A stretch of DNA of 64,000 bases from an uncultured Candidatus Saccharibacteria bacterium. GTDB taxonomy: Bacteria; Patescibacteriota; Minisyncoccia; Phycocordibacterales; UBA9973. Location of the stretch: the NCBI GenBank assembly GCA_964634365.1, contig CAZWJU010000002.1, forward strand, positions 103,150 through 167,149, read 5' to 3'. Numbering within the stretch: the stretch's first letter is position 1; every line of letters begins with the position of its first letter. Shown here piece after piece: positions 1,902-64,000 of this stretch. Both the position numbers and the translations under genes were made by a program. Under the pieces are notes generated by a model. That model was not told the origin of the DNA. It saw only the letters and a program-made list of their open reading frames with translations, and made no database searches.

Positions 1902-3791
1902 TTATACACTGAATACATCTCTAATGTGTCCATCCTTCACTTCAAATGCTAGAGAAACAAAAACTTTTGTATATGTAGAATCTGCATTTTTCTTCTCTAT
2001 TGTCACATAATAATTTCCATTTGAAATCAAACAGTAGTAGTGGCCTCTCGCATCAGAAACCTTGTGAGTAATTTCTTGATTATTGGATACAGAATACACG
2101 CGCAGAATTGCATATGATAGAGGTAGTCCTGTTGCTTTGTCTACAATACCTCCAAGTTTATGATTCTTGTACCCTACCTCTCTCAAAATAAACAAAAGTA
2201 TATATAGAGCAAATATAATTATGTTGTATAAAACAGGCGAAACCAAAAAGGCAATAAATGCTATGAAGAAACCGGCAGCAAAAAGAGTGTCTGATATTTG
2301 TCTAAAAATAGCATCGCGTCTTGAATAAAACTTCATCAATTTCTGTTGTTTTTTAGCAAATTCATTCCAATCGAAGTTGATCGGATCCATAGGGATATTT
2401 TTTGTTATAGGAGAATTCTCTGTAACCTCCAAGTCTTCACCAAAATACAAGTCTTGATATAGTTCGTCTTTTTTCTGTCCTGCTAATTTTTCTGAAGGAA
2501 ACTTATAGTTAGTTTTATTGGCAACTATTTTATAAGTCCCACTAGGTACCAAAAATCCAAAACGCCCATCTAGATCGGTTATAGATGTAGAAACTTCAGT
2601 TCCATATTTGTCGTACAAAACAACATAAGCAGGATCAAGTGGCTGCTTTGTTATAGAGTCATATACAGTTCCCCATGGTGGACGACGTTTCGATAGACCA
2701 AAAGCTGCTAGTAGTAGTGACCACAATCTAAAAGGTATGAAAACAAGTTCAGAGAGCGAAAGTGGATTCATAAATAGCAGTGAGGCAATAGATATAACCG
2801 CACTGGTTGTCAAAGCAAAACCAGTAAAAATCTTTGTAGCAAGACCTCCACTTTCGCTGTTTATATAATCCTCTATTCCTCCTGGTATACCATCTGTAAA
2901 ATCAATTCCTCCGTCTGTAATACAATCAATTCCTACGCAAATCTCTGGATCTGTAGGTGGGGGTACACAATCAGCACCGACACAAGTCTCTGGAGGATTG
3001 CACTCTTCACCTACACAACCAATCGGCGCATAATCACAAGGTGATGGACTGCCATAGTTTGTTGCAAACAAATCTTCACAGATATTTTCTTCTTCCGGTG
3101 GATTACAATCTTCACCTACACAGCCAACTGGTGCATAATCACAAGGCGAAGGCCCACCAAAATTTGTTGCTGCAACATCAGAACAGATAGAGATTGTGTA
3201 AGTACAAGGCAGTGCTCCGCCATAGTTTGCTGCATTCGTATCAGAACATAAACTAGGAGGATTACCGCCTCCACCTCCACCCGTAGTATCTCCATCTCTA
3301 GCATCTTTAGGTCTCCAATCAGTTTTCACACAAGCATCAGCGACTCCACAATCAAACTGAATCCAACCATAGTTTTCGCTCCATGCAAAACCTACAAATT
3401 CCCCGTCCATATCTATATAAACTTCTTGTGTAGAACTATTCGAGAAAGGGCCGAAGTTTATCCAGCCAGCAGCCTCACCCCATGCATATCCAGAAAGCTG
3501 ACCTCGAGAAGAATCTGTGTCTGGATCATTCAATACACCTCCTGAGTTAGGATCTAAGTGAATCCATCCTAGACTAGGACCCCAGATATCTCCAGTTACA
3601 GCGTCATCAGTTATAAGAACATCTTCTGCGCCAGCATTGCCAGGAACAAGCCAGTAAATCAATTGGCCGTGTGTGTATATTTTTGAAGTATAACTATCTA
3701 CATCGATAGTACCCTCTTCTTCAGAAGCAACTGCAGAAAAAACATTTAGAAAAAATATTGATATTATAAATAAAAATAAAATTTTCTTCAT
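1902..3791 (-). CDS. Large secreted, membrane-anchored protein. N-terminal repeats AW(G/S)E..GWI.F, tandem Cys-rich repeats about 35 aa long, TM segments, and a C-terminal CarboxypepD_reg-like beta domain.
   Basis: Signal peptide MKKILFLFIISIFFLNVFSAVASE. Repeats GYAWGEAAGWINF / GFAWSENYGWIQFD. Tandem repeats ATNFGGPSPCDYAPVGCVGEDCNPPEEENICEDLF x2-3. Hydrophobic helices. C-terminal GTYKIVANKTNYKF-like beta-sandwich motif. Confidence 0.6.
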   Translation of the reverse strand: MKKILFLFIISIFFLNVFSAVASEEEGTIDVDSYTSKIYTHGQLIYWLVPGNAGAEDVLITDDAVTGDIWGPSLGWIHLDPNSGGVLNDPDTDSSRGQLSGYAWGEAAGWINFGPFSNSSTQEVYIDMDGEFVGFAWSENYGWIQFDCGVADACVKTDWRPKDARDGDTTGGGGGGNPPSLCSDTNAANYGGALPCTYTISICSDVAATNFGGPSPCDYAPVGCVGEDCNPPEEENICEDLFATNYGSPSPCDYAPIGCVGEECNPPETCVGADCVPPPTDPEICVGIDCITDGGIDFTDGIPGGIEDYINSESGGLATKIFTGFALTTSAVISIASLLFMNPLSLSELVFIPFRLWSLLLAAFGLSKRRPPWGTVYDSITKQPLDPAYVVLYDKYGTEVSTSITDLDGRFGFLVPSGTYKIVANKTNYKFPSEKLAGQKKDELYQDLYFGEDLEVTENSPITKNIPMDPINFDWNEFAKKQQKLMKFYSRRDAIFRQISDTLFAAGFFIAFIAFLVSPVLYNIIIFALYILLFILREVGYKNHKLGGIVDKATGLPLSYAILRVYSVSNNQEITHKVSDARGHYYCLISNGNYYVTIEKKNADSTYTKVFVSLAFEVKDGHIRDVFSV

Positions 3792-13688: not shown

Positions 13689-13714
13689 AAAATCCCCCAT
13701 CAAGGGGGATTTAT
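13684..13714. terminator. Bidirectional terminator hairpin of the AAAATCCCC...GGGGATTT family
   Basis: gaaaatccccc-atcaa-gggggatttatttttt between convergent genes. Confidence 0.6.
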
Positions 13715-13718
13715 TTTT

Positions 13719-13991
13719 TCAGGATGTAGTTTTTTCTTCTGGGATTGGGATTAATGGCAGTGCGATTTCTTTCCCTTTTTCGGTGATATTCCATTGTCCA
13801 AGGCGTTTATCACCCTTGGCAATCAATTCTTCTGACTCAAGACCTCTCATAATCTCAGCTACCAATAGGACCTTGGGAGATCTTGGGTCACTTTTAAACT
13901 TTTCAATAATATCGCCAATCTTTAGCGAACCACCATTTTCCTCCAGAATAACAAGGATCAATTCATGATCTTTAAGTTGTTGTTGCGTCAT
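13719..13991 (-). CDS. Small hypothetical protein, possibly a winged-helix type
   Basis: 90-aa ORF with good coding look. No strong motif. Confidence 0.4.
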   Translation of the reverse strand: MTQQQLKDHELILVILEENGGSLKIGDIIEKFKSDPRSPKVLLVAEIMRGLESEELIAKGDKRLGQWNITEKGKEIALPLIPIPEEKTTS

Positions 13992-14050
13992 ATTCAGTTG
14001 TATTTGCCAAAATTATACTTTTTTTATAGAAATTGTCAAAAAAGTATAAT

Positions 14051-17726: not shown

Positions 17727-19553
17727 CTAACTAGAAGCTTCCTCCAAATCCTTTTTAGCCTTTTGTATAGCCAGAACCTGGGATGGATCAGAAGTTATAA
17801 TCTGGTCTTCGGTATATGAAGCAATAACCTTTATAGCTACGTGCTTCAATCCAGCAAAGAATATACCCTCTCCCACTCCACTCTCTAGGAGCAAATACTT
17901 TTCTTCATCGGTTAAGTTAAAAGTCTTCTGTAATACATCTATTGAACTAGGAGATTGTTTCAAGAGTAGCTGGATGGACGAGTTTGTAACAATCGGTAGT
18001 CCATATGGACTCTTCAAGAAGTCTCCTACGTCTTGAGTAATAGTCATCAATCCTAAATAGTATTTTCTTCCACGTTTTGCGATTGAGTACAGGAAAGATG
18101 CTGTGTCTTCACTTTTCATCATCCACCAAGCCTCGTCCACCACAAGCAATCTCTTGCGAAGATTCTTACGCACAGCGTTCCAGATATAGTGAGTAACTAT
18201 ATACATTGCTACAGGCTTAAGTTCGTCTTCCATATCGCGCACTGAAAACACCACAAACTTTTTGTTGATATCTACGTTTGAAGGTTGGTTCAAAAATCCT
18301 GCCCAGCTACCTCGAGTATATTTTTGCAACTTCTGAACTATAGACTCTGTGTTCTCCATACCAGAGAGAACCATTTCAAAGTCAGACAAAAGTGGTGGCT
18401 CAATATTTGAAAAGTCAGAATTTGCAGTGATATCTTTGATAGCATAAGTTTCAGTTATTGCTCTGTCGATAATCGCATCTTCTTCTGGAGTAAGACCTCC
18501 GAGCATTATACGGAAAAGACCTACTAGATTGATTGTGTTTGATCTTAGGACATCACTAGCGGTTTCATCTTCGCGAGGTATAGGTAAGTCAAAAGGGTTT
18601 ATGTGGTGGTCAGATGATAGAGATATATTGAAATATCTTCCCCCTACTGCTTCTGCCAAATATTCGTATTCACGCTCTGGGTCGATTACAATCACCTCTG
18701 TATCAAACATGAGTGTACGGATAAGCTCTAGTTTTGTTGCATAAGATTTACCAGAACCAGACTTAGCAAAAGTAATAGAGTTGTAGTTTTCTAGAGAAAA
18801 GCGATCAAATATAACTAGACTAGAATTGTGACGGTTCACGCCGTACAAAATCCCCTTGTCACTAGTTAGGTCAAAAGAAACAAACGGAAAAATACTAGAA
18901 AGAGGTTCGGAGTTTAATTTCTGATGAACACCGAGTAGGTCTGTACCTATTGGAATCACACTCTTGAAGCCTTCTTCTTGTTGAAATAGTGCTGGCTTTA
19001 GATACACGAGCTTAGCATCCAGGATTGATTTGATTTCATTTTCTAATTTGAAAAGTTCGTCTTCGTTGTCAGCGTACATGGTTATATACAAACCAACATC
19101 GAACATCTTTTCTTGGGCTTGTTGTAGACTATCGCGCAAAGACTCAAGATCTCTGTAAGCAGTATCAAGCATCGGATCACGCACAAGACCGCGACTCTCT
19201 CGCATATTTATCTGACTCTGCACTTCAGCAACCTTTTTCTGAAATTGACGCAATATAGTAGCTGTATCAATCGGATGCACGAAAAATGAAACGTCGAATA
19301 TTTTGTCTAGATTGATTATAGGAGCAAACCAGTTGTCTGTTAGATATCTTGGATAAGATATAACAAAGAAAGTTCTCGCTATTTTATCTCCCAGGTGCAA
19401 AGCTTTTGGTTCAATTTGAAGTGCTGAAGGTGCAATAACATCCTGAAGTTCGAGTGTTGCAGCTTCATATATCTCGCCTGGCAAAACAGGCAAAACTTGA
19501 TGTTCGTTCGCCTTCTTGCTTGATTTACCTAAAATTTTATCTAAAAGTCCCAT
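17727..19553 (-). CDS. virB4: VirB4/TraC/PrgJ-type conjugative ATPase, C-terminal ATPase portion
   Basis: Walker A FAKSGSGKSYATK, Walker B LLVVDEAWWMM, and TITQDVGDF. 608 aa. Confidence 0.75.
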   Translation of the reverse strand: MGLLDKILGKSSKKANEHQVLPVLPGEIYEAATLELQDVIAPSALQIEPKALHLGDKIARTFFVISYPRYLTDNWFAPIINLDKIFDVSFFVHPIDTATILRQFQKKVAEVQSQINMRESRGLVRDPMLDTAYRDLESLRDSLQQAQEKMFDVGLYITMYADNEDELFKLENEIKSILDAKLVYLKPALFQQEEGFKSVIPIGTDLLGVHQKLNSEPLSSIFPFVSFDLTSDKGILYGVNRHNSSLVIFDRFSLENYNSITFAKSGSGKSYATKLELIRTLMFDTEVIVIDPEREYEYLAEAVGGRYFNISLSSDHHINPFDLPIPREDETASDVLRSNTINLVGLFRIMLGGLTPEEDAIIDRAITETYAIKDITANSDFSNIEPPLLSDFEMVLSGMENTESIVQKLQKYTRGSWAGFLNQPSNVDINKKFVVFSVRDMEDELKPVAMYIVTHYIWNAVRKNLRKRLLVVDEAWWMMKSEDTASFLYSIAKRGRKYYLGLMTITQDVGDFLKSPYGLPIVTNSSIQLLLKQSPSSIDVLQKTFNLTDEEKYLLLESGVGEGIFFAGLKHVAIKVIASYTEDQIITSDPSQVLAIQKAKKDLEEASS

Positions 19554-19555
19554 AA

Positions 19556-20200
19556 TTATATTTTTATATTTTGTTCAGTCTCACCTGGGTTAAATACCTT
19601 ATAAAAAAGCTCTATAACCTCTTCGGTTCCAAGTTTTGTACTACGAACACCGCAACGATTTAAACCCTGCTGCACAACAGATATACGTTGTTCAAGCTGA
19701 GTTCTCTTTTCTTCGAATAGAGAGAGGGCGTCGTTTTTCTGGCTAACTTTGTCGCCGGCGCCAGTAAGGTCAGAAAAAGCTTTTGTTATACTACCCTGTT
19801 TTGATAGGGGCGCTGCAGAATAAGGTACTACTATAAAAAAGTTTTTGGTCATTATGTTAACTTGCTCTGTGAAAGATCTTATGAATTCTATGTATTCTTT
19901 TGTCTGCACCTTGAGCAGAGGCTCAACCTGATCCTTCATGCGATTTTCGAGAGTAAGCAGATACGGCTTTATATCCAGTCTTCGTGACTGGACGATGATC
20001 TGTGTTGAAAATTCTAGGGAGTTTAGAAATGTTTGAAATTGCATTATTATAGCCTGCTGTTCGTCACTTGATTTTAAAGATAGGTTTACAGAAGAAGCCA
20101 TGATCACAGCACGCAAACCTCCGTCTTTAAGCACAACAACACCATCCCGAACTTCTTTGATCGGTACGAATGATTGTGTTGAGCGTGCGTTGATTGCCAT
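19556..20200 (-). CDS. virB4: VirB4 N-terminal domain encoded as a separate ORF. Split or frameshifted VirB4.
   Basis: FVPIKEVRDGVVVLKDGGLRAVIMASSVNL..SDEQQAIIMQFQTFLNSLEFSTQIIVQSRRLD matches the N-terminus of Gram-positive VirB4 proteins. The stop TAA is 2 nt before the ATG of the ATPase ORF, in another frame. Confidence 0.65.
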   Translation of the reverse strand: MAINARSTQSFVPIKEVRDGVVVLKDGGLRAVIMASSVNLSLKSSDEQQAIIMQFQTFLNSLEFSTQIIVQSRRLDIKPYLLTLENRMKDQVEPLLKVQTKEYIEFIRSFTEQVNIMTKNFFIVVPYSAAPLSKQGSITKAFSDLTGAGDKVSQKNDALSLFEEKRTQLEQRISVVQQGLNRCGVRSTKLGTEEVIELFYKVFNPGETEQNIKI

Positions 20201-20222
20201 AGAGTTTAGTATATCAAATAGT

Positions 20223-20627
20223 TTACTTTTTAGAGTTCACATCGAGCACATCTAGACTCCAAGATATGTCTTTGAGCTTACTTTCTGATAATCTGGGTAC
20301 AATCGGTGCAGGGAGTACATCTTCACTCTTTTTAATTTCCTTTTTATTTGGATCTTTTTTCCAAATATACAATTTACCTTGAACGAGAAATCTGATATAG
20401 GATTCTAGTATTGCAATAAAAGGCTTGTTGTTGACTTTATAAAAAGTCAGAGCAAGAGAGAGACCTGCTATAGGAACAATAAGTAAAACCGCAAAGAAAA
20501 ATGGCAGTAATTTGTAAATAATAAAACAAATACCTGCTCCACCAGCTAGGTAGACAAATTGCTTGAAAGTAAAAGGTCCAAATATTTTGTCTTCAATATC
20601 AATAAATTGAGGGACACTAAATCGCAT
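20223..20627 (-). CDS. PrgI/TcpE-like small two-TM protein (VirB3 analogue)
   Basis: MRFSVPQFIDIEDKIFGPFTFKQFVYLAGGAGICFIIY fits the PrgI-family N-terminus. Two TM helices. Immediately upstream of VirB4. Confidence 0.6.
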   Translation of the reverse strand: MRFSVPQFIDIEDKIFGPFTFKQFVYLAGGAGICFIIYKLLPFFFAVLLIVPIAGLSLALTFYKVNNKPFIAILESYIRFLVQGKLYIWKKDPNKKEIKKSEDVLPAPIVPRLSESKLKDISWSLDVLDVNSKK

Positions 20628-20680
20628 ACAAGTATTATATCAGAACTTTTTAGGATTTTAGGCACATTATATACACAGCA

Positions 20681-20731
20681 AAAATCCCCTAGTCTACTTT
20701 ATGAAAAGTGAGCACAACGGGGATTTTTGCT
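20681..20731. terminator. Long-loop inverted repeat using the same arms as the terminator family (gcaaaaatcccc ... ggggatttttgc)
   Basis: 12-bp arms separated by a 29-nt loop, downstream of the 299-aa gene on the minus strand. Confidence 0.45.
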
Positions 20732-30625: not shown

Positions 30626-30663
30626 AAGTCCTTAGACTATAACATGTAAACAACATAACAGTA

Positions 30664-31052
30664 AAAATCTACAACCCGCCTCTGGCGGGTTTTTTTCTAA
30701 TCATTACTTTTTCAAAAAAGTAATGCAAAAATTTCTTTGCGTATAACTCTGTGTATATTCACGAAACTCGGACTCACTAAAAGTATTAACTCGGCTACCA
30801 CCTCAAACAGAATACTTTTTCCTAACGGAACGTTCGTCCTCGTTTGTTCATATATACACAGAGTTATAAGGCAAAGCTAGGGCCCAAATACACCAATCCA
30901 TACTTTTAAAAAGTCTTGCGCAGCCGGGCAGGCGAGCAGAGCAAAAATCTAGCAAGATTTTATGCGTGCTTTTTAAAAGTTATGGATAAAAGAAAGTTTT
31001 CCGGAAACTAGGCTCTGAGTTACTGTAGACGTGATGTGGGTTACAAAAACAA
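30664..31052 (+). repeat. Copy A of a multi-copy structured non-coding element of about 390 nt. It starts with an A-run + cccgcc-tctg-gcggg hairpin. Strand uncertain.
   Basis: About 80-90% identical to 38181-38580 and 56392-56760. No ORF. Compensatory base changes between copies; see findings. Confidence 0.75.
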
Positions 31053-31083
31053 TAAAAAATCCCCAGAGGGGATTTTTTATTGT

Positions 31084-31389
31084 TTATCCTATTTGATTCA
31101 TTACTGACATACTTTCTCTTTGAAATTTTTCTGCTTCTTCTTTTGCAATATTTTCGAAATCAGAAACATTTTCTCGCAAGAATCCAATTATCATCTCAGG
31201 AGATGCGTCTTTGTCTAGCATCTCTTCAAATTCTGACTGGAGATTCTCTGGCATACCATCCATAACTCTCATCAATATCCCTTGAAATATTAGTGAGCCA
31301 ATCCGCTCAATAATATCATTTTGCTCGTCTTCTGAAAGGGAGCTGAGATTATATGCATTTATAATTGTTTGACGTAATTTTTGATCCAT
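31084..31389 (-). CDS. Small acidic hypothetical protein
   Basis: 101-aa ORF followed by a terminator hairpin at 31058-31083. Confidence 0.5.
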   Translation of the reverse strand: MDQKLRQTIINAYNLSSLSEDEQNDIIERIGSLIFQGILMRVMDGMPENLQSEFEEMLDKDASPEMIIGFLRENVSDFENIAKEEAEKFQRESMSVMNQIG

Positions 31390-37055: not shown

Positions 37056-38120
37056 ATGAAAATAGCCTTATATAATAAGCTTCCTACCAAAGAAGTTTGT
37101 TTTTCTATATCTATAATAGGAGCTTTTGTAATGTTCCCGCTTAGAACAGAGGCCAACATATTGTCGATTTTTGGTCTTGGTTCTACCACAGAAGTATATG
37201 CCGAAACTAGTAACGCAGAGCAAAACTCACAAACAATGCCTATTTTGATGGCTTATCATAGCCCAGATCCTACTCAAGTTCTTATAGAAAAGACTGTAAC
37301 TATAGACGACGGGGCTCTTCAGTCTGAAATTGGACCACTTGGTACACTTGCAGACGTTGTAGAATACGACTTCCCAGAAAGCGACGAGATCAGTCTATAT
37401 GTTGTAAGATCTGGAGATTCTATAGGGGCAATTGCTGAAATGTATGGTGTTTCTGTAAACACAATAATGTGGGCAAATGATCTCAAAAAAGGAGACAGTC
37501 TAAAGGAAGGTCAAATGTTGACAATACTACCAATAACAGGAGTTAGACACGTTGTTAAAAAAGGAGAAACAATTTTTAGTATTGCAAAAAAGTTTAATGC
37601 TGATGCAAAAGAAATAGCCCAATTCAATGGAATCATAGAAACAGCCTCTTTAAGAGCAGGCGAAATACTTCTTATACCAGATGGAGAAATTGCAGCTCCA
37701 AAAGTAACCAAGACCACTAAAACATCATCGTCTGGTAAAAAAGAAAGAACCTGGGGAACAAATGCACCTGAACAAAAAGGTTATTATATAAGACCACTAT
37801 CTGGAGGAAGAAAATCTCAAGGGCTTCATGGTTTCAACGGCATAGATATCGCTGCACCAATTGGAACACCAATATATGCATCAGCAAGTGGAACAGTGAT
37901 CGTCTCTAGATCAGGCGGATGGGGTGGAGGCTATGGAAGTTATGTAGTTATAAGACATGCAAACGGTACACAAACTCTATATGCACACATGTCTAAAGTA
38001 TCCGTACCTCTAGGAGCAACAGTTACACAAGGACAAGTTATCGGTGCTGTAGGAAATACAGGAAGATCAACTGGCCCACACTTGCACTTCGAGGTTCGTG
38101 GAGCAAAAAATCCATTTTAA
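37056..38120 (+). CDS. LysM-domain M23-family peptidoglycan DD-metalloendopeptidase
   Basis: N-terminal TM, two LysM-like repeats (YVVRSGDSIGAIAEMYGVS; HVVKKGETIFSIAKKFNAD), and M23 motifs GIDIAAPIGTPIYA ... HLHFEVR. Confidence 0.85.
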   Translation: MKIALYNKLPTKEVCFSISIIGAFVMFPLRTEANILSIFGLGSTTEVYAETSNAEQNSQTMPILMAYHSPDPTQVLIEKTVTIDDGALQSEIGPLGTLADVVEYDFPESDEISLYVVRSGDSIGAIAEMYGVSVNTIMWANDLKKGDSLKEGQMLTILPITGVRHVVKKGETIFSIAKKFNADAKEIAQFNGIIETASLRAGEILLIPDGEIAAPKVTKTTKTSSSGKKERTWGTNAPEQKGYYIRPLSGGRKSQGLHGFNGIDIAAPIGTPIYASASGTVIVSRSGGWGGGYGSYVVIRHANGTQTLYAHMSKVSVPLGATVTQGQVIGAVGNTGRSTGPHLHFEVRGAKNPF

Positions 38121-38129
38121 ATAAAAAGA

Positions 38130-38580
38130 TTCGAAAGAAAAAATCCCCTCCGGGGATTTTTTCTTTTATTTAAAATAAAAATCTACAACCCGCCTCTGGC
38201 GGGGTTCATTTTTTAATCATTACTTTTTTAAAAAAGTAATGCAAAAACTTCTTTGCATGTATGAAAAATCTAGCTCACAACACGATAGCTCGTTAAAAAT
38301 ATTAACTCGCCCCGCAGGCTCAAAGCGGGGCTCAAACAGAATATTTTTTACTCCGTAACACTCGCTCTCGTGTGTTCACTTACGATTTTTCATGCAAGGC
38401 AAAGCTAGGGTTCAAATACACCAATCCATACTTTTAAAAAGACTAGCGAGTGTGGCGACACGAGCTCGAGGAATTTTCTAGCAAGAAAATATCCGTGCTT
38501 TTTAAAAGTGATGGATAAAATAAAGTTTTCCGGAAACTAGACTCTGAGTTACTGTGGACGTGATATGGGTTACAAAAAAC
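38130..38580 (+). repeat. Copy B of the structured non-coding element. Includes a shared upstream terminator hairpin.
   Basis: ttcgaaagaaaaaatcccctccggggattttttc + atctacaacccgcctctggcgggg... Collinear with copies A and C. Confidence 0.75.
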
Positions 38581-38598
38581 AAAAACCCTTACGGGTTT

Positions 38599-39708
38599 CT
38601 ATTTCAAAGCTTTTATTCCAGGAAGCGTCCCTTTAGCCAAAAATTCTAAAGTAGCACCACCACCAGTAGAAACAAAAGTAAATTTATCTTCCATTTTCAT
38701 CTTGGACACAAGCGCAACCGTATCACCACCACCAATTATTGTCTTCGCTTTTGATTTAGCCAAGATTTTCAGTAGAGCAACAGTACCGTGATCGAAACCT
38801 GCTTCGTACTCTCCTGTCGGACCGTTCCATAGGACAAATTTTGATTTTTTTATTAGTATTTCAAACTCTCTTATTGTTCTATCTCCTATATCTACAATCT
38901 TATCCATCTTGCCCACCTCATCTATGCCTTTGGTTAGTCTTCCCCCGTCTTTACCAGTAACCACAACATCGACAGGTAACAGTAGTTTTGGATTGTTTAT
39001 TATTTTACTTATTCCATATTCTCCTTTTTCTACGAGAGATCTACCGACTTCAAAAGAAGCTTCTTTGAAAAAGTTGTTCATCAGCGCACCTGTAACCACT
39101 ACTCTATCTGCATCCTTTAGAAACTTTTTTATGAGAGGCATCTTTGTATCAAACTTTGCTCCACCTAAAATAAATAAAAATGGTCTTTTAGGTTTGTCTA
39201 GAACAATTGATAAGTTTTTAATTTCTTTTTCAAATTGAAATCCAACATATGATGGTAAGTATTTTGGAATCCCGACAATAGATGCGTGTTCTCTATGTGA
39301 AACCGGGAAGGCTTCATTTACATAAATATCAGCAAAACTAGCTAGATGTTTTGCAAATTTAGAATAATTTTCTTTTTCACCGATTTGTCGACGAATATTT
39401 TCTAGCAAAACAATTTCCCCTTTTTTTAGATCAATAGATTTTGGAACAGGTCCATCTATAAACCTAACTTTTATATGTTTATTTAAAAATTTTGCGACAG
39501 GTAAAAGTGTCTGTGCATCTTTTTGTAAATCAGAATGAGATACGAGTATTATCGAAGCTCCTTTTTTTTGTAGATACTGTATTGTAGGAAGTGCTTTTAA
39601 TATTCTAGTAGAATCTATTATTTTATCTCCTTCGATCGGAACATTAAAATCTGTTCTCAATAGAACTTTTTTACCTTTTAAATTTTTAATACTTTTTACT
39701 GATTTCAT
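38599..39708 (-). CDS. pgk: Phosphoglycerate kinase
   Basis: KGKKVLLRTDFNVP N-terminal motif, and the GGGA/GGGD C-terminal domain motifs. Confidence 0.85.
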   Translation of the reverse strand: MKSVKSIKNLKGKKVLLRTDFNVPIEGDKIIDSTRILKALPTIQYLQKKGASIILVSHSDLQKDAQTLLPVAKFLNKHIKVRFIDGPVPKSIDLKKGEIVLLENIRRQIGEKENYSKFAKHLASFADIYVNEAFPVSHREHASIVGIPKYLPSYVGFQFEKEIKNLSIVLDKPKRPFLFILGGAKFDTKMPLIKKFLKDADRVVVTGALMNNFFKEASFEVGRSLVEKGEYGISKIINNPKLLLPVDVVVTGKDGGRLTKGIDEVGKMDKIVDIGDRTIREFEILIKKSKFVLWNGPTGEYEAGFDHGTVALLKILAKSKAKTIIGGGDTVALVSKMKMEDKFTFVSTGGGATLEFLAKGTLPGIKALK

Positions 39709-56335: not shown

Positions 56336-56820
56336 TTCGAAAGAAAAAATCCCCTGGAGGGGATTTTTTCTTTTATTTTAAATAAAAATATACAACCCGC
56401 CTCTGGCGGGTTGTATTGTATTTTAAATATTACTTTTTCAAAAAAGTAATGCAAAAACTTCTTTGCATGTATCAAGAAAGACACTCACAAAACTCGGACT
56501 CACTAAAAGTATTAACTCGGCCACTACCTCAAACAGAATACTTTTTCCTGTCGGAACGTTCGTCCTTGTTTGTTCGTGTATATTTCTTGAAACAAGGCAA
56601 AGCTAGGGCCCAAATATAACCAATCCATACTTTTAAAAAGTCTTGCGCAAGGTCGACGGGCCGAGCAGAGCAATTCGCTAGCAAGCGAATATGCGTGCTT
56701 TTTAAAAGTTATGGATAAAATAAAGTTTTCCGGAAATTGGACTTTGGGTAGCCAATAAAAAAGATGAAGTTGTTTTGAAAAAGTAATGATTAAAAAAATG
56801 AACCCCGCCAGAGGCGAGTT
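56336..56820 (+). repeat. Copy C of the structured element. It carries terminal inverted repeats; the 3' end mirrors the 5' hairpin region.
   Basis: The 5' end cccgcctctggcggg...attactttttcaaaaaagtaat and the 3' end gaaaaagtaatgattaaaaaaatgaaccccgccagaggcg are mutually reverse-complementary. Confidence 0.75.
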
Positions 56821-56864
56821 ATTATTAACTATTCCCTTATCCCTTATCACTATTCCCTAAAATA

Positions 56865-58348: not shown

Positions 58349-58365
58349 ATACAATATCAAAATAA

Positions 58366-58392
58366 AAAACCCGCCTAGCGGGTTTTTTATTT
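58366..58392 (+). terminator. Rho-independent terminator after clpP
   Basis: aaaaaacccgcc-tagc-gggttttttat. Confidence 0.65.
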
Positions 58393-58410
58393 AATTGGTG
58401 TATTTAGAAT

Positions 58411-58620
58411 CCTTGGAGCCTAACTTTGCCTTGTAGATTTACATATCTAGACGAACGCAAATAGTGTTTCAAAAGACTCTGTGTAGTGCGACGGCGCGAA
58501 ACAAAGAAAATTTATAGCAGTAAATTTTCGTGTCTTTTGAAACACTATTAAGTGAGTTGTTTTTTGAAAAAGTAATAGTTAAACAAGTAAAGAAAAATTC
58601 CGCTTTGCGGAATTTTTCTT
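58411..58620 (+). repeat. Partial, diverged copy D of the structured element. It holds the conserved three-way-junction core plus a 3' hairpin.
   Basis: tagtgtttcaaaagact...aaaatttaTAGCAGtaaatttt...gtcttttgaaacacta aligns with the core of copies A-C, with compensatory changes. Confidence 0.6.
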
Positions 58621-58763
58621 TGAATTTTTAATACATAAACTACCGAGCGTATTCTATTACTCTCGCCTCTCGAATCAAGGTTACCCCGGTACGAAAATTG
58701 CACAGCGAATGCCTGTGCAATTTCATACGGGGCGAGACGTGGTAAATTTATTTTTTGTGATTT

Positions 58764-60290: not shown

Positions 60291-60562
60291 GTAATCTTCG
60301 TCTGCTTACGATAGTAGTTTCGCTTTTTGAGTGATTTCTATTTGAATTTTAGTATTTTGATGATTCATATCAGAGCTTTGCAGAAATATTTTCTCACACA
60401 CTTCGCGTCTAAAATCTGGTAAGTAGGTAAATTGTTTATAAGTTCGATGTCTCCATATTAGCACACCTTTTTCATTGTGTCATTGATATTCTTGACATAG
60501 TACATATTCAGTTATACTTTATAGACATTAAAAATCCGCCTCGTTAGCAAGAGGCGGATTTT

Positions 60563-60943
60563 TTAATTTGTCTGAGATTCGTCTTCTTCCTGCAAGACTT
60601 TTTCTATCTTTGCACTATGAGTTCCCTTGTCTATACCAAGTATTATCATACTAGCACCCATACCAATCATAGATACTGCTAGTATTCTATATGCTATTAA
60701 AATTTCTTTTATTGTCTCTGGCGGAAGACTGTCTATATTTTGCGCTAGAGTAGAATGTTCACCAAAAACTCTTTTTGCTACAAATGAACCAGCAATTACA
60801 GCAAAAACACCCGCCCATGTTGCTGGTTTTTTTAAGATTTCTTTTATTTTTAAAATAGTTTCTGGTTTTGCATTTTCAACCTTTTCCATGAAAATATCTT
60901 TCTCGCTTTTTTCTATTGGTGTATTTATATTTTCTTTTTCCAT
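60563..60943 (-). CDS. Small membrane protein, hypothetical
   Basis: Two TM helices. 126 aa. Confidence 0.5.
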   Translation of the reverse strand: MEKENINTPIEKSEKDIFMEKVENAKPETILKIKEILKKPATWAGVFAVIAGSFVAKRVFGEHSTLAQNIDSLPPETIKEILIAYRILAVSMIGMGASMIILGIDKGTHSAKIEKVLQEEDESQTN

Positions 60944-60945
60944 AT

Positions 60946-61105
60946 TTTACTTGTTGTCTTCATCTAATATATTTTCAATCTCTTTCATTGCATTTAGAGC
61001 AAGTTCCTCTATCGCAGCCTTTTCTGATTCGGTCGCAGTACCCTGCTTTATCTTTTCGACCATAGCTTCGTATTCTTCTTTTGTGTATTTTATTTCGTCT
61101 TGCAT
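60946..61105 (-). CDS. Small acidic protein, about 52 aa. Hypothetical. Approximate coordinates.
   Basis: ATG...MQDEIKYTKEEYEAMVEKIKQG... read from the minus strand; too short to appear in the provided ORF track. Confidence 0.3.
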
Positions 61106-61140
61106 ATTTTTTATTTTACCATATTTAAAAAAATGAAATA

Positions 61141-61440
61141 AAAAAAACCCGCAGAACTATTGTCTGCGGGGCGGGTCCACGGCGTGGGACCCTGTTTTTT
61201 GCCGGGGGGGGTCATGACTTCCTCCTGGCTCTCTTTTTTGGCCCAGTCGCTTCCGGTTATGGAAGTCTTCCTTTCGAAAGACTTCGGCGTAGTGCGACGG
61301 ATCGGGCCTCTGTTGTGCCCCGGCTCTTGGCCTAGCCCCTATCCTTTCGGTAGGGGGGCGGGCTCTGGCACGGGGGCTTCCGGCGTTTTAGACGTCCTTT
61401 ATCGACGCATAGGTAGTATAGCACAGTGACTAATCTTTGT
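61141..61440. ncRNA. GC-rich structured non-coding segment. It appears to be a divergent fifth member of the repeat-element family; strand uncertain. A minus-strand terminator sits at 61141-61175.
   Basis: GC far above the local background. GNRA-capped hairpin gaagtcttt-c-GAAA-g-gaagacttc. Shares tttcgaaagact + tagtgcgacgg with copy D and ccgg...tagacgt with copies A/B. No credible ORF. Confidence 0.45.
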
Positions 61441-61600
61441 CAAGCCCCTTATGCTTATCCTTCCGAGTATACCTGGCTTTATCTTTATGTGTCTTCCCTT
61501 TCATGTTTACTCCTGCAAATACATTTCGAGACATCTCTCTGCTTTCCTTTGCGAGATCATGTTTCACAACAATACGGATATTTTTCTTTTTCTTGCTCAT
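61430..61600 (-). CDS. Small Lys-rich basic protein (56 aa), hypothetical
   Basis: MSKKKKNIRIVVKHDLAKESREMSRNVFAGVNMKGKTHKDKARYTRKDKHKGLDKD. Not in the ORF track because it is under 60 aa. Confidence 0.35.
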   Translation of the reverse strand: MSKKKKNIRIVVKHDLAKESREMSRNVFAGVNMKGKTHKDKARYTRKDKHKGLDKD

Positions 61601-61659
61601 AATTTTTTATTTTAAAAAATTAAACGAAAAAAGAAGGGATTACTCCCCTCTTTAAAAAA

Positions 61660-61974
61660 TTAATTCACCCAGTCATTCACGAGGGGTATTCGTGCTTGTT
61701 TGAAATATTTTTTCAAACCTACACAAATACTCTTTTGAATGTGAAGTGACACATTAAAACCAGTTACAGAAGCGAAGACCTTGTGGTCATACGCCCACGA
61801 AGTTTGATCAAGAATTTCAAGAATCTGATGGTTCATCGATATTGTCCGAAATATTCGAAGTACAATATCATCCAAAGATTCCCTGCCTCCCCAGAGAAAT
61901 AATTCGGTATGAGGCTCTTGATATCCTTCGTGGGGCACTTCTACTGCCAATGTAACTACAACAATTTTTTCCAT
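61660..61974 (-). CDS. Small hypothetical protein
   Basis: 104-aa ORF. Confidence 0.45.
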   Translation of the reverse strand: MEKIVVVTLAVEVPHEGYQEPHTELFLWGGRESLDDIVLRIFRTISMNHQILEILDQTSWAYDHKVFASVTGFNVSLHIQKSICVGLKKYFKQARIPLVNDWVN

Positions 61975-62080
61975 ACGTTTACGTTTTTTGGTTTATTTTT
62001 TGTTTCGTGTAACGTTTAAAATTTATTCTTATTTTTACTTGTGAAACTGACTAAACGTATGGATATACTTAGGCAATATA

Positions 62081-62386
62081 TTACTTTTTCTTCAGATTTT
62101 CCGGAGTCGAACAGCCGACAAAATTAAAATCAATCCCATCACTTGTGTTCGACTGGTACGGAAGCACTGCACCAAGCAGCTTTTTCATGCCATCAACAAA
62201 ATTATCAACCTCATTTGGAGCGGCTTTCTCAATTTCATCCCACGCCACATGTAAGGTCACGGTTTTACCACGCTTGTCATCTTTTTGTGAAACAAAGGTA
62301 TATTGCATATATTTATTTTTTAAAGGTTTAAAGAACAAACGCGCGGCACTGCTGTGCCTGTGCAATGTCGCATGTTCGTCCTTCAA
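62081..62386 (-). CDS. Small hypothetical protein (possibly starts at the internal MQYTFVSQ)
   Basis: 101-aa ORF. Confidence 0.4.
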   Translation of the reverse strand: MKDEHATLHRHSSAARLFFKPLKNKYMQYTFVSQKDDKRGKTVTLHVAWDEIEKAAPNEVDNFVDGMKKLLGAVLPYQSNTSDGIDFNFVGCSTPENLKKK

Positions 62387-62831
62387 TCTCTCTACAGAAC
62401 TCCGAATATTTCAGAATCCTGATAAAGGGAGCGAGTTATACTCGCCCTTTTTACCTTTTGATACCCATTGGTGTCATCAAAATCCTTTTCTCAAAAAAAT
62501 TCTGGGCTTTGCAAAGTTTTTGTTTTTTCTCCCCTGTAGGAAGAAATCCATTTTTCTTTAAAAGCTTGCTAGCTTCTTGTTCAAGTCTTTTTTGTTCCAA
62601 TGTTGTTTTTTCCATAAGATTATTTTTTCGACACAGAGTTTTTCTGAACAGACTTGTTGCATTGATCACAACACAGCAAGTCTTTTTATTTCCAAGGAAA
62701 ACTTGATGGGAGAGACGCGCCTCTCTTGCATCGCTAAACCTACCAGTCCGGCTGGCTTCGCATCTTTAGCAGACGCGATCACGTGGTCTTCGACTGTTCA
62801 TCGAGTTTTTGTTTTTGGGTGAAAAAATATT

Positions 62832-63245
62832 TTAAAACCAGATTACATGAGGCTCATACCCGAGTGGGAGTGTGAATTCTTTTTTGTAATCATCGAGGGC
62901 TTTCGAAAAATCCTCGCGACCATACCACCAGCCGGAGATACACTCACCTTGTGGATGTTTCTCAAACTGCAGAAATGCGCGATTGGCCTCATCTTGTGTT
63001 TCAAACACAAAGGTGTTTTCGCACATCATAGTAGTTACGGCGATAGGTTTATAACCAGCCGATTTCAAAATTTCAAGATCAAAATAAAACTTCTGTAAAT
63101 CTTTAGAGATATTATTTTCTTCCATCCATCTTTGACGTCTTTCAATTTCTTCAAACCATTCGTCCATTTCTTTTGCAATTTTTGGGTCGATTGGCCCTAA
63201 AAGATCATCGAGTTCTTTCAGATAATTTCTTCTTATAGATTTCAT
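62832..63245 (-). CDS. Hypothetical protein (137 aa)
   Basis: ORF with a coiled N-terminus and Trp-rich C-terminal region. Confidence 0.45.
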   Translation of the reverse strand: MKSIRRNYLKELDDLLGPIDPKIAKEMDEWFEEIERRQRWMEENNISKDLQKFYFDLEILKSAGYKPIAVTTMMCENTFVFETQDEANRAFLQFEKHPQGECISGWWYGREDFSKALDDYKKEFTLPLGYEPHVIWF

Positions 63246-63556
63246 TTATTATTTTTTAGAATTTAAAGAACTATATTCATTTTGAAAACTCAACCTAAGT
63301 TCAGTTCTCAAAAATCAGGACGAAAAAAATAATACTGTCGTCCGGCAGTCGTTCGATATGAACTCCCACTTGCAATACGCAATTTACTTTACGCTCGTGG
63401 TATAACGCAGCTAGAGGCAACAACCTACTTCCTTCAGTTTTGCTTTATTTAGACTTTTCCTAGGTTGATCCAAGCTCAATCAATTTTCATCCCTGTAAAG
63501 GGATATATGATGAGAGCGTGAACCAGAGCCTTCATGAATCTGGACACCATTTTGTT

Positions 63557-63877
63557 TTACAAAATACAATAAATAGGAAGGAGAAGTTTTAATTTCATCT
63601 CCTCAACTATCTCTTCATTTGTTGCTTCGGGTTTTACAATTACTCCGATCCACAACGTATTTGCATCACTTGGGTATCTGTTAAAAATATAAGCTTTTTT
63701 TATATCAACATTATTTGTTTTTACGGCTTCCATAATATTTACAATTCTTCTAGCACATACAGAGCAATGCCCTTCTTCGGCAACTTCAAAATATGCCCTA
63801 CCATCATCACAAATACGAATTTCACGCTTAGTTGACCAGCCATTTAAGACTACAAAAAAAGATTTTATAACGTTCAT
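63557..63877 (-). CDS. Small Cys-containing hypothetical protein (106 aa)
   Basis: C..HC..C cluster (CDDGRAYFEVAEEGHCSVCARR). The start is overlapped by a 19-bp inverted repeat. Confidence 0.45.
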   Translation of the reverse strand: MNVIKSFFVVLNGWSTKREIRICDDGRAYFEVAEEGHCSVCARRIVNIMEAVKTNNVDIKKAYIFNRYPSDANTLWIGVIVKPEATNEEIVEEMKLKLLLPIYCIL

Positions 63878-64000
63878 GGTGATTCATTTGGTGAAATGGG
63901 GTTTCTAGAATTACCCCGTTCCACCAAATGAATTATTTTTATAAAGAACTTACTTTCTACCAAGCCGCAATCGAAATTGTAGTCTGGATAAAAAGGGCAA

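Follow-up and report, generated by a model that had tools for sequence, protein, structure and literature searches.

A dispersed, terminator-bracketed intergenic element with a covarying three-way-junction core in Nomurabacteria-like Patescibacteria

Genomes of the candidate phyla radiation (CPR, Patescibacteria) are very small and have little spare DNA. Among the intergenic repeats described in bacteria, repetitive extragenic palindromic (REP) sequences form simple GC-rich hairpins of ~20-40 nt with a conserved 5' GTAG, and the 127-bp enterobacterial ERIC/IRU repeats are imperfect palindromes of transcribed intergenic regions that can lie in either orientation, differ between species in their presence and are conserved across genera; ERIC folds as a single long hairpin, without a multi-helix junction, subtype pairing or an extra 5' domain. 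Inverted REP doublets, termed REPINs, owe their mobility to RAYT transposases (Bertels and Rainey 2011, PMC3116915), and the BOX elements of Streptococcus pneumoniae are modular boxA-boxB-boxC intergenic repeats that are transcribed, insert rarely and belong to a narrow clade (Croucher et al. 2011, PMC3049150). Herein, we report an undescribed family of ~400-base intergenic elements in ultra-small CPR bacteria. Its copies were analyzed in a 64,000-nt stretch of assembly GCA_964634365.1 (contig CAZWJU010000002.1, positions 103,150 to 167,149; hereafter the window), which falls within Patescibacteria, close to Candidatus Nomurabacteria, in comparisons of Pgk, Tig and UvrD. The ~105-nt core of the element folds into a heavily covarying three-way junction and the copies are bracketed by terminators; we tentatively read the family as small-RNA genes.

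Like BOX elements, the present family consists of dispersed intergenic modular repeats in varied combinations with extensive predicted RNA structure. However, no sequence relation to BOX was visible by inspection and the family has no Rfam match; it also differs from BOX in its heavily covarying three-way-junction core, its two head-to-head subtypes, its terminator brackets and the far greater divergence of copies within one genome. With REP sequences, their mosaic assemblies (bacterial interspersed mosaic elements, BIMEs) and REPINs, it shares structured extragenic repeats that often lie between convergent genes, inverted doublets at some loci, selection on fold rather than sequence and long persistence in a lineage. 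The unit here is a 105-nt A/U-rich three-way junction instead of a short GC-rich palindrome, the members of a doublet are different subtypes, and no RAYT gene was seen within the 64-kb window. ERIC resembles the family in being an imperfect palindrome of ~100-130 nt, found in either orientation and variably present between species, whereas the present family adds the multi-helix junction, the subtype pairing and the additional 5' domain. Orphan non-coding RNA (ncRNA) motifs of Rfam likewise have a fold backed by covariation, conserved unpaired nucleotides and no associated open reading frame (ORF), but the present family occurs in several copies per 64 kb of CPR genome and is rearranged between close relatives. 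The three-way core, the two pairing subtypes, the terminator bracketing and the small-genome CPR host set the family apart from BOX, REPIN, ERIC and the orphan motifs, to which it is nearest in kind. A literature search on non-coding RNAs or repeats of CPR, Patescibacteria or Nomurabacteria returned nothing relevant.

Copies of the element and the fold of their core

A scan of the window with the 19-mer TACAACCCGCCTCTGGCGG gave exact + strand matches starting at 30670, 38184 and 56391 and an inverted copy with three mismatches at 56805-56823, and none of 100 window shuffles matched it. BLAST, a repeat search and alignment revealed that the three exact matches belong to homologous + strand elements, copies A, B and C, which are 76-82% identical over ~370-415 nt. 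Copy B (38130-38598) occupies the interval between the LysM-M23 gene (+) and pgk (-), and copy C (56336-56823) that between tig (+) and a 221-aa gene (-) without a Pfam match; both placements had been given correctly in an initial annotation made from the sequence. The same annotation had put copy A (30662-31085, +) in the 5' region of the UvrD-like helicase gene. The Pfam UvrD domain starts at residue 7 of that ORF, and the copy in fact occupies, on the strand opposite to uvrD, the interval that separates the uvrD start (30625, - strand) from the stop codon of a DUF5663 gene (31084). A rearranged fourth copy, D (58365-58622, mixed strands), had escaped notice in the interval between clpP and the RNase Y gene. 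Altogether, the family occupies ~1.6 kb of the window. Copies within the window genome are 65-82% identical and carry compensatory changes; they are not near-identical, and no ORF was conserved in frame, start codon and length across five full-length copies.

In a first pass over seven sequences, 89% of the core structure was paired. The covariance models R1 and R2 detected 14 cores in 7 Patescibacteria genomes, of which 13 (from 6 genomes) entered the alignment. In the 13 aligned cores, 97.7% of the cells were paired and in 24 of the 34 pairs both partners had changed. On no measure was the observed value attained by any of 500 shuffles, and sliding the structures by 1-3 columns left only 36-57% paired. 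When folded singly, all 13 cores adopted a common three-way junction. Its stem P1 is long and A/U-rich, contains CUUUUWAAAAAG and has outer arms that vary between copies with compensation; P2 comprises two G-C pairs, tandem G.A/A.G pairs, a covarying 4-bp stem and a GACG-type loop; and P3, a covarying hairpin of 9-10 bp, carries a bulged A. Conservation also covers the junction strands, whose nucleotides are kept even in the loci L006 and L028, in which Pgk is only 52% and UvrD 63% identical to the window proteins. Covariation extends beyond the core. RNAalifold on the three window copies gave 113 pairs, 31 with compensatory double changes, and in the 5' domain 17 of 38 pairs had double changes. 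Paired substitutions were also found between orthologues, as in UAACUCUG/CAGAGUUA of window copy A versus UGACCCUG/CAGGGUCA at site A of L019.

The core further indicates a strand. G.U pairs outnumbered A.C pairs by 7 to 2, in 12 of 13 cores the forward strand folded better than the reverse and was the more stable of the two, and the strand call is supported by the conserved tandem G.A motif GCGA...GAGC, which makes sense on one strand only. Conservation of the junction suggests an RNA that serves as a scaffold for protein binding, acts as a catalyst or binds a ligand.

Two additional contacts were considered and rejected. A 9-nt complementarity between the 5' domain and the core of copy B was not conserved in the other copies, and no covariation between the P2 and P3 loops was visible in the core alignment. 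The uvrD-site core of L019 (CP064973.1) carries an extra hairpin, CCUGCCUGUC-GACA-GACAGGC, in the P2-P3 junction strand (L019 9826-9850), which turns its three-way junction into a four-way junction.

Anatomy and terminator bracketing

A full copy is built, in order, of the T2 hairpin (CCCGCC-TCTG-GCGGG followed by a T-run), the 24-bp M2 palindrome (general form CATTACTTTTTYAAAAAAGTAATG), a 5' domain of ~150 nt, the M4 linker (general form AAGGCAAAGCTAGGG..CAAATACACCA), the ~105-nt core, a tail and a bidirectional terminator that is common to the neighboring gene. M2 always lies 8-25 nt from a terminator hairpin. In copy B, T2 covers 38184-38209 (+), with the stem-loop at 38189-38203 and then the T-run; M2 is a perfect A/T-rich palindrome, CATTACTTTTTTAAAAAAGTAATG, at 38218-38241; and the 5' domain (38242-38395, +) forms a long, irregular hairpin whose outer stem is hypervariable and whose internal loops are conserved. 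The M4 linker AAGGCAAAGCTAGGGTTCAAATACACCA (38396-38423, +) leads into a B-type core at 38416-38522 (+), matched by the covariance model at 111-119 bits and with P1 at 38424-38516. The tail (38523-38580, +) consists of an A-rich linker, a small hairpin GUUUUCCGGAAAC and then ACUCUGAGUUAC...ACGUGAUAUGGGUUAC, and the copy ends in the terminator AAACCC-TTAC-GGGTTT (38581-38598), which is common to the convergent pgk.

The same modules were recognized in the other two full copies, both on the + strand and both with an A-type core. Copy A has T2 at 30670-30691, M2 at 30702-30725, the 5' domain at 30726-30867, M4 at 30868-30895, the core at 30888-30993 and the tail at 30994-31046, and its 3' end is closed by a T1-type hairpin (31047-31085) that the initial annotation had also missed. 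Copy C has T1 at 56339-56374, T2 at 56390-56416, M2 at 56428-56451, the 5' domain at 56452-56594, M4 at 56595-56623, the core at 56616-56722 and the tail at 56723-56765, followed by an inverted copy of M2 and T2 at 56766-56823. These T2 and M2 sequences give C terminal inverted repeats of 48 nt, the only ones among the copies; A and B end in unrelated hairpins and have no second M2 site. Copy D comprises a terminator (58365-58387), an M4-like segment (58396-58436, minus), a core (58452-58555, +) flanked by 5'-domain remnants, an M2 half-site (58555-58576, minus) and a second terminator (58588-58622). Hybrid M2 half-sites are found at the right ends of both C and D.

Only B and C share ~55 nt further upstream, ttcgaaagaaaaaatcccc(tccg/tggag)gggattttttcttttatttaaaataaaaat, which in B spans 38130-38183 (+). 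The claim that the two copies have in common even an upstream hairpin directly after + strand stop codons was borne out. In B, the shared stretch starts 10 nt past the stop of LysM-M23 (38120), and in C 6 nt past that of tig (56329). Other terminators of the window have the same generic style of A-tract, C-run, G-run and T-tract; however, the identity covers the flanks of the hairpin too, indicating homology rather than convergence. The hairpin within it, T1 (AAAAAATCCCC-N4/5-GGGGATTTTTT), is the bidirectional terminator of the LysM-M23 gene in B (38134-38166), and a T1-like hairpin after tig is also present in the relatives L011 and L012. Considering that it is found at the tig site of relatives whatever the form of the element, T1 is the upstream protein gene's own terminator, and the B/C extension is not a core part of the unit. 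Therefore, of the two hairpins proposed to form the repeat unit, only the second, T2, belongs to it: T2 and M2, kept in A, B and C, are the true 5' boundary of all three. The general view that this repeat is dispersed and associated with terminators and the ends of convergent genes is supported. Two terminators in tandem precede B and C, double terminators bracket C on both sides, and in 9 of the 13 cores the tail is succeeded by a terminator hairpin, mostly bidirectional and common to a neighboring gene.

At copy A, the left edge of the element adjoins the putative uvrD promoter. The region directly upstream of uvrD (TATGTTATAGTCTAAGGACTTATG) is conserved in the window (30626-30665), L019 (9960-10000), L020 (9960-10000) and L028 (9968-10000), and a -10-like TATAGT/TATACT lies only 6-12 nt before the uvrD ATG, which suggests that the uvrD mRNA is leaderless or near-leaderless.

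Family members and orthologous sites in relatives

Four of the detected cores are in the window. Two were found in L011 (an ENA assembly; Tig 93% identical to the window), two in L019 (UvrD 93%), four in L014 and L020 of GCA_031972635.1 (Pgk 81%, UvrD 84%), one in L028 (an ENA groundwater-type scaffold) and one in L006 (MAG ELA233, a metagenome-assembled genome). The L014/L020 matches recur in L015/L021 of a second assembly, GCA_031972835.1, and were not counted separately. The complete genome of a close relative measures 705 kb. A core may stand by itself, form a divergent pair with one of the other subtype (A/B) or follow a 5' domain to which it is fused; the 5' domain is confined to the window clade (window, L019 and L017/L018). 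Cores fall into two conserved subtypes, A-type (GAGC-AGAGC), comprising window A and C, L011 minus, L014 plus, L020 plus and the L019 pgk site, and B-type (GAGCUCGAGG), comprising window B, L011 plus, L014 minus, L020 minus, L006 and the L019 uvrD site. Head-to-head core pairs are present in L011, L014 and L020 and absent from the window, and each pair joins the two different subtypes.

Searches for the element elsewhere returned little. Rfam 15 (4227 models) gave no match at gathering score anywhere in the window, and permissive Rfam searches of A, B and L014 gave sub-threshold matches only, with nothing on the core at B or A. A scan with GGCAAAGCTAGGGNNCAAATA found none in GTDB species genomes or viral contigs and three chance matches in JGI metagenomes. 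Two wider core patterns yielded, in viral contigs, either none or one chance in-coding match that the model rejected. Copy B had no match to phages, and to plasmids only two short A/T-rich matches over M2 and adjoining sequence.

The initial annotation had proposed comparing orthologous intergenic regions for empty sites, and this comparison uncovered sites with inverted elements, swapped modules, head-to-head core pairs, mere remnants or no element at all. In the interval from tig to the 221-aa gene, where the window has the full element C, L011 keeps T1 and then carries an A-type core (minus) head-to-head with a B-type core (plus); the L012 contig breaks inside T1, and L013 has a different gene next to tig and no element. 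At the 3' site of pgk, L016 is the same as the window (copy B), L014 has a B-type core in window orientation beside pgk and then a divergent A-type core, and in L017, L018 and L019 a full element is turned the other way round. The L019 element at this site combines a B-like 5' domain with an A-type core and lies between two identical 29-nt terminator palindromes. Upstream of uvrD, where the window has copy A, L019 again carries a full inverted element, here with an A-like 5' domain and a B-type core. Both inverted L019 elements have their breakpoints at the flanking terminators. Orientation agreed among the few close-relative contigs sampled, L001 and L016 having that of the window and L017/L018 that of L019.

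The pgk terminator stem has a reversed loop in close relatives, CAAAG in L017 (11110-11140) and CTTTG in L019 (2148-2176), which looks like a trace of recombination within palindromic terminators.

More distant or reduced states were found as well. The uvrD-upstream spacer is 156 nt long in L020, L022 and L023, and in L020, the one read, it holds only a tail remnant; tail-only remnants are present in L020 and L019. In L028, a bare core in window orientation lies 34 nt from the uvrD start within a 154-nt spacer, and in L006 a bare core takes up the 95-nt tpiA-pgk spacer, antisense to both genes. The site upstream of uvrD thus holds a core in the window, L019 and L028, and the pgk 3' site does so in the window, L014, L016, L017 and L019, an occupancy that has lasted through long divergence. 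The site upstream of prgI carries a second A/B pair in L020 and no element in the window and L019. The two A/B pairs of GCA_031972635.1 are ~90% identical by eye, with compensatory changes in P2/P3 as the main differences. In the window, the prgI-upstream site (20678-20729) shows a T1-style terminator stem (AAAAATCCCC...GGGGATTTTT) with an unusually long loop of ~29 nt.

The element also coincides with breaks in gene order and in assemblies. In GCA_031972635.1, pgk and its core pair adjoin a block of a 109-aa ORF (without a Pfam match), HIT and RecJ, and the homologous HIT/RecJ block of the window lies at 11.5-14 kb, 25 kb from pgk and with no element beside it, placing the element at a synteny breakpoint (window 13690-14050 and 38100-38600 compared with L014 11100-12400). 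Short-read (Logan) contigs end in or beside the element in L001, L002, L012, L016, L017 and L018, indicating that the repeat fragments the assemblies of these genomes.

RNA gene, mobile element or cis-acting feature

Deep covariation, a non-canonical motif that is specific to one strand, a junction conserved across distant genomes, the long occupancy of sites and the terminators after the tail all point to selection on an RNA fold. We therefore lean, with confidence somewhat short of even, toward a family of stand-alone, terminator-bounded genes for structured small RNAs that have been reshuffled by recombination. At the same guarded level, the family would be confined to one clade of Candidatus Nomurabacteria-like Patescibacteria. 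The RNA made from a full-length copy would then be a + strand transcript of ~340-370 nt, starting just past the T2 hairpin and the M2 palindrome, and transcription running on from the upstream gene would be halted by T2 and, in B and C, by T1 as well. The transcript, with the 5' domain presumably read on the strand of the core, would fold into this domain and the three-way junction and would end at the bidirectional terminator common to the convergent neighbor. The core would be an old and widespread module. Spread and remodeling would proceed by recombination and not by cut-and-paste transposition, the possible routes being inversion between similar flanking palindromic terminators and gene conversion between copies. 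Recombination between such terminators would suffice for the inversions, because the L019 breakpoints lie at terminators and terminator loops are flipped.

The initial annotation had offered two readings, a mobile element of the kind of miniature inverted-repeat transposable elements (MITEs) or REPs and terminator-associated small-RNA (sRNA) genes. A classical MITE is not supported. The structure is conserved by compensatory change and a same-strand intrinsic terminator stands past the tail of most cores; with strong covariation and terminators at the element ends, an sRNA gene fits better than a MITE. Of the features of a classical MITE, presence/absence polymorphism at orthologous sites is there. 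However, terminal inverted repeats at both ends are absent in A and B and present only in C, the copies are divergent, and a Pfam scan of 50 ORFs across the 64 kb found no transposase, recombinase, RAYT or reverse-transcriptase domain. The target-site duplications that had been suggested as a check were not found around A, B and C, where the longest direct flank words were 3-6 nt, like those of shuffled flanks; the sole exception among the sites is the duplicated 29-nt terminator at the L019 pgk site.

Several observations weigh against the RNA-gene reading. A consensus scan upstream of A, B and C detected no sigma-70-like promoter, CPR promoters being poorly known. The folding energies of the full-length element on its two strands are nearly equal (z = -4.95 versus -4.82) and do not separate them, so the strand call is taken from the core. 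The minimal copies of L006 and L028 are antisense to co-directional genes and leave little room for a promoter and terminator of their own. The family is patchy among relatives, with no copy in ~130 kb of other Nomurabacteria-like loci (L007-L010, L013, L024-L026). The two A/B pairs of GCA_031972635.1 lie on one contig in stretches at least 13 kb apart, and the dispersal of 250-400 bp units to unlinked intergenic sites implies some mobility.

The main rival, a real possibility if a less than probable one, is that the family is a selfish, non-autonomous mobile element that propagates via a folded single-stranded DNA or RNA intermediate, like a REPIN or an IS200/IS605-type element on a larger scale. 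In that case, the core would be the mobile unit, the P1 arms its terminal inverted repeats and the A/B pair a replicative doublet; a trans-acting enzyme encoded elsewhere would recognize the fold, and selection on mobility would keep the structure. The filled prgI-upstream site of L020, empty in the window and L019, and the mere remnant upstream of uvrD in L020 agree with this, as do cores in either orientation at new positions, the D core inside a disrupted 5'-domain unit, and the bare antisense cores inside the short operon spacers of L006 and L028. Inverted doublets at three different loci recall REPINs, which are likewise inverted REP doublets (PMC3116915), and patchiness among relatives, a synteny breakpoint and broken short-read contigs also speak for such an element. 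Against it stand the lack of target-site duplications at the window copies and of a transposase, RAYT, recombinase or reverse transcriptase among the ORFs scanned. Same-genome copies are not near-identical, the outer P1 arms vary with compensation rather than staying conserved as ends, and no known MITE or REP has a three-way junction that combines tandem G.A pairs with conserved bases at the junction. Moreover, several sites have been occupied since divergence to 63-84% UvrD identity. The RNA-gene and selfish-element readings are not fully exclusive.

Unlikely, in our estimate, is a cis-acting host feature at gene ends, comparable to roles proposed for REP/BIME and ERIC, that blocks convergent read-through or protects mRNA 3' ends. 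Most copies do lie between convergent genes directly beside terminators, tandem terminators precede B and C and double ones enclose C, and folding is strong on both strands. However, copies past efficient intrinsic terminators would seldom be within mRNAs, a simple roadblock or protective hairpin needs no strand-specific three-way junction with conserved bases, the orientation relative to neighboring genes flips between close relatives, and most convergent gene pairs of the window have no element. An inverton, in which a site-specific recombinase flips M2-type palindromes and so switches which neighbor is transcribed, is very improbable: the 48-nt inverted repeats with M2 flanking C, the hybrid M2 half-sites at the right ends of C and D, the inversion of both orthologous L019 elements relative to the window and the loop flipped between L017 and L019 are set against inverted repeats at C only with no second M2 site in A and B, no recombinase gene or domain among the window ORFs scanned, a uniform orientation within the few close-relative contigs sampled, and breakpoints at flanking terminators that general recombination can explain.

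Other known classes were rejected one after another. A type I toxin-antitoxin (hok/sok, ldr, ibs/sib) or small-peptide locus does not agree with the absence of a conserved ORF, and no tRNA or tmRNA was found in the window. For a CsrB-like protein sponge, GGA motifs were no commoner than composition predicts by our own estimate, and for a retron or an IscB/TnpB/IS110 guide RNA there was no such protein adjacent or nearby and no Rfam match.

If the copies are RNA genes, they would form a new multi-copy class of structured RNA; if they are selfish elements, they would be a new kind of structure-dependent repeat. A bolder proposal, which we regard as doubtful, is that the core is either a new CPR functional RNA class (ribozyme, aptamer or ribonucleoprotein scaffold) or the recognition module of a new structure-dependent, terminator-dwelling mobile element that would cause inversions and breaks of synteny in these very small genomes. 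Whether its copies are RNA genes or selfish elements, the family marks points of broken synteny, is turned round between close relatives and breaks short-read assemblies, and therefore affects the assembly and comparison of CPR genomes. The covariance model built here permits a direct census of the family.

Three further features of the window were recorded. A type IV secretion/conjugation-like cluster at 17727-20640, with TraG/VirB4 P-loop ATPase, TraC-like and PrgI-like genes, is kept in L019 and L020. The 3.7 kb at 60300-64000 hold only short ORFs (62-169 aa) and no notable repeat; the ten ORFs scanned there had no Pfam match, and the region gave no gathering-threshold Rfam match. Two tandem 96-nt units at 2989-3189, with a spacing of 105 nt and 76% identity, lie inside a 629-aa ORF (1902-3791) with a CarboxypepD_reg domain and are probably a repeated protein segment.

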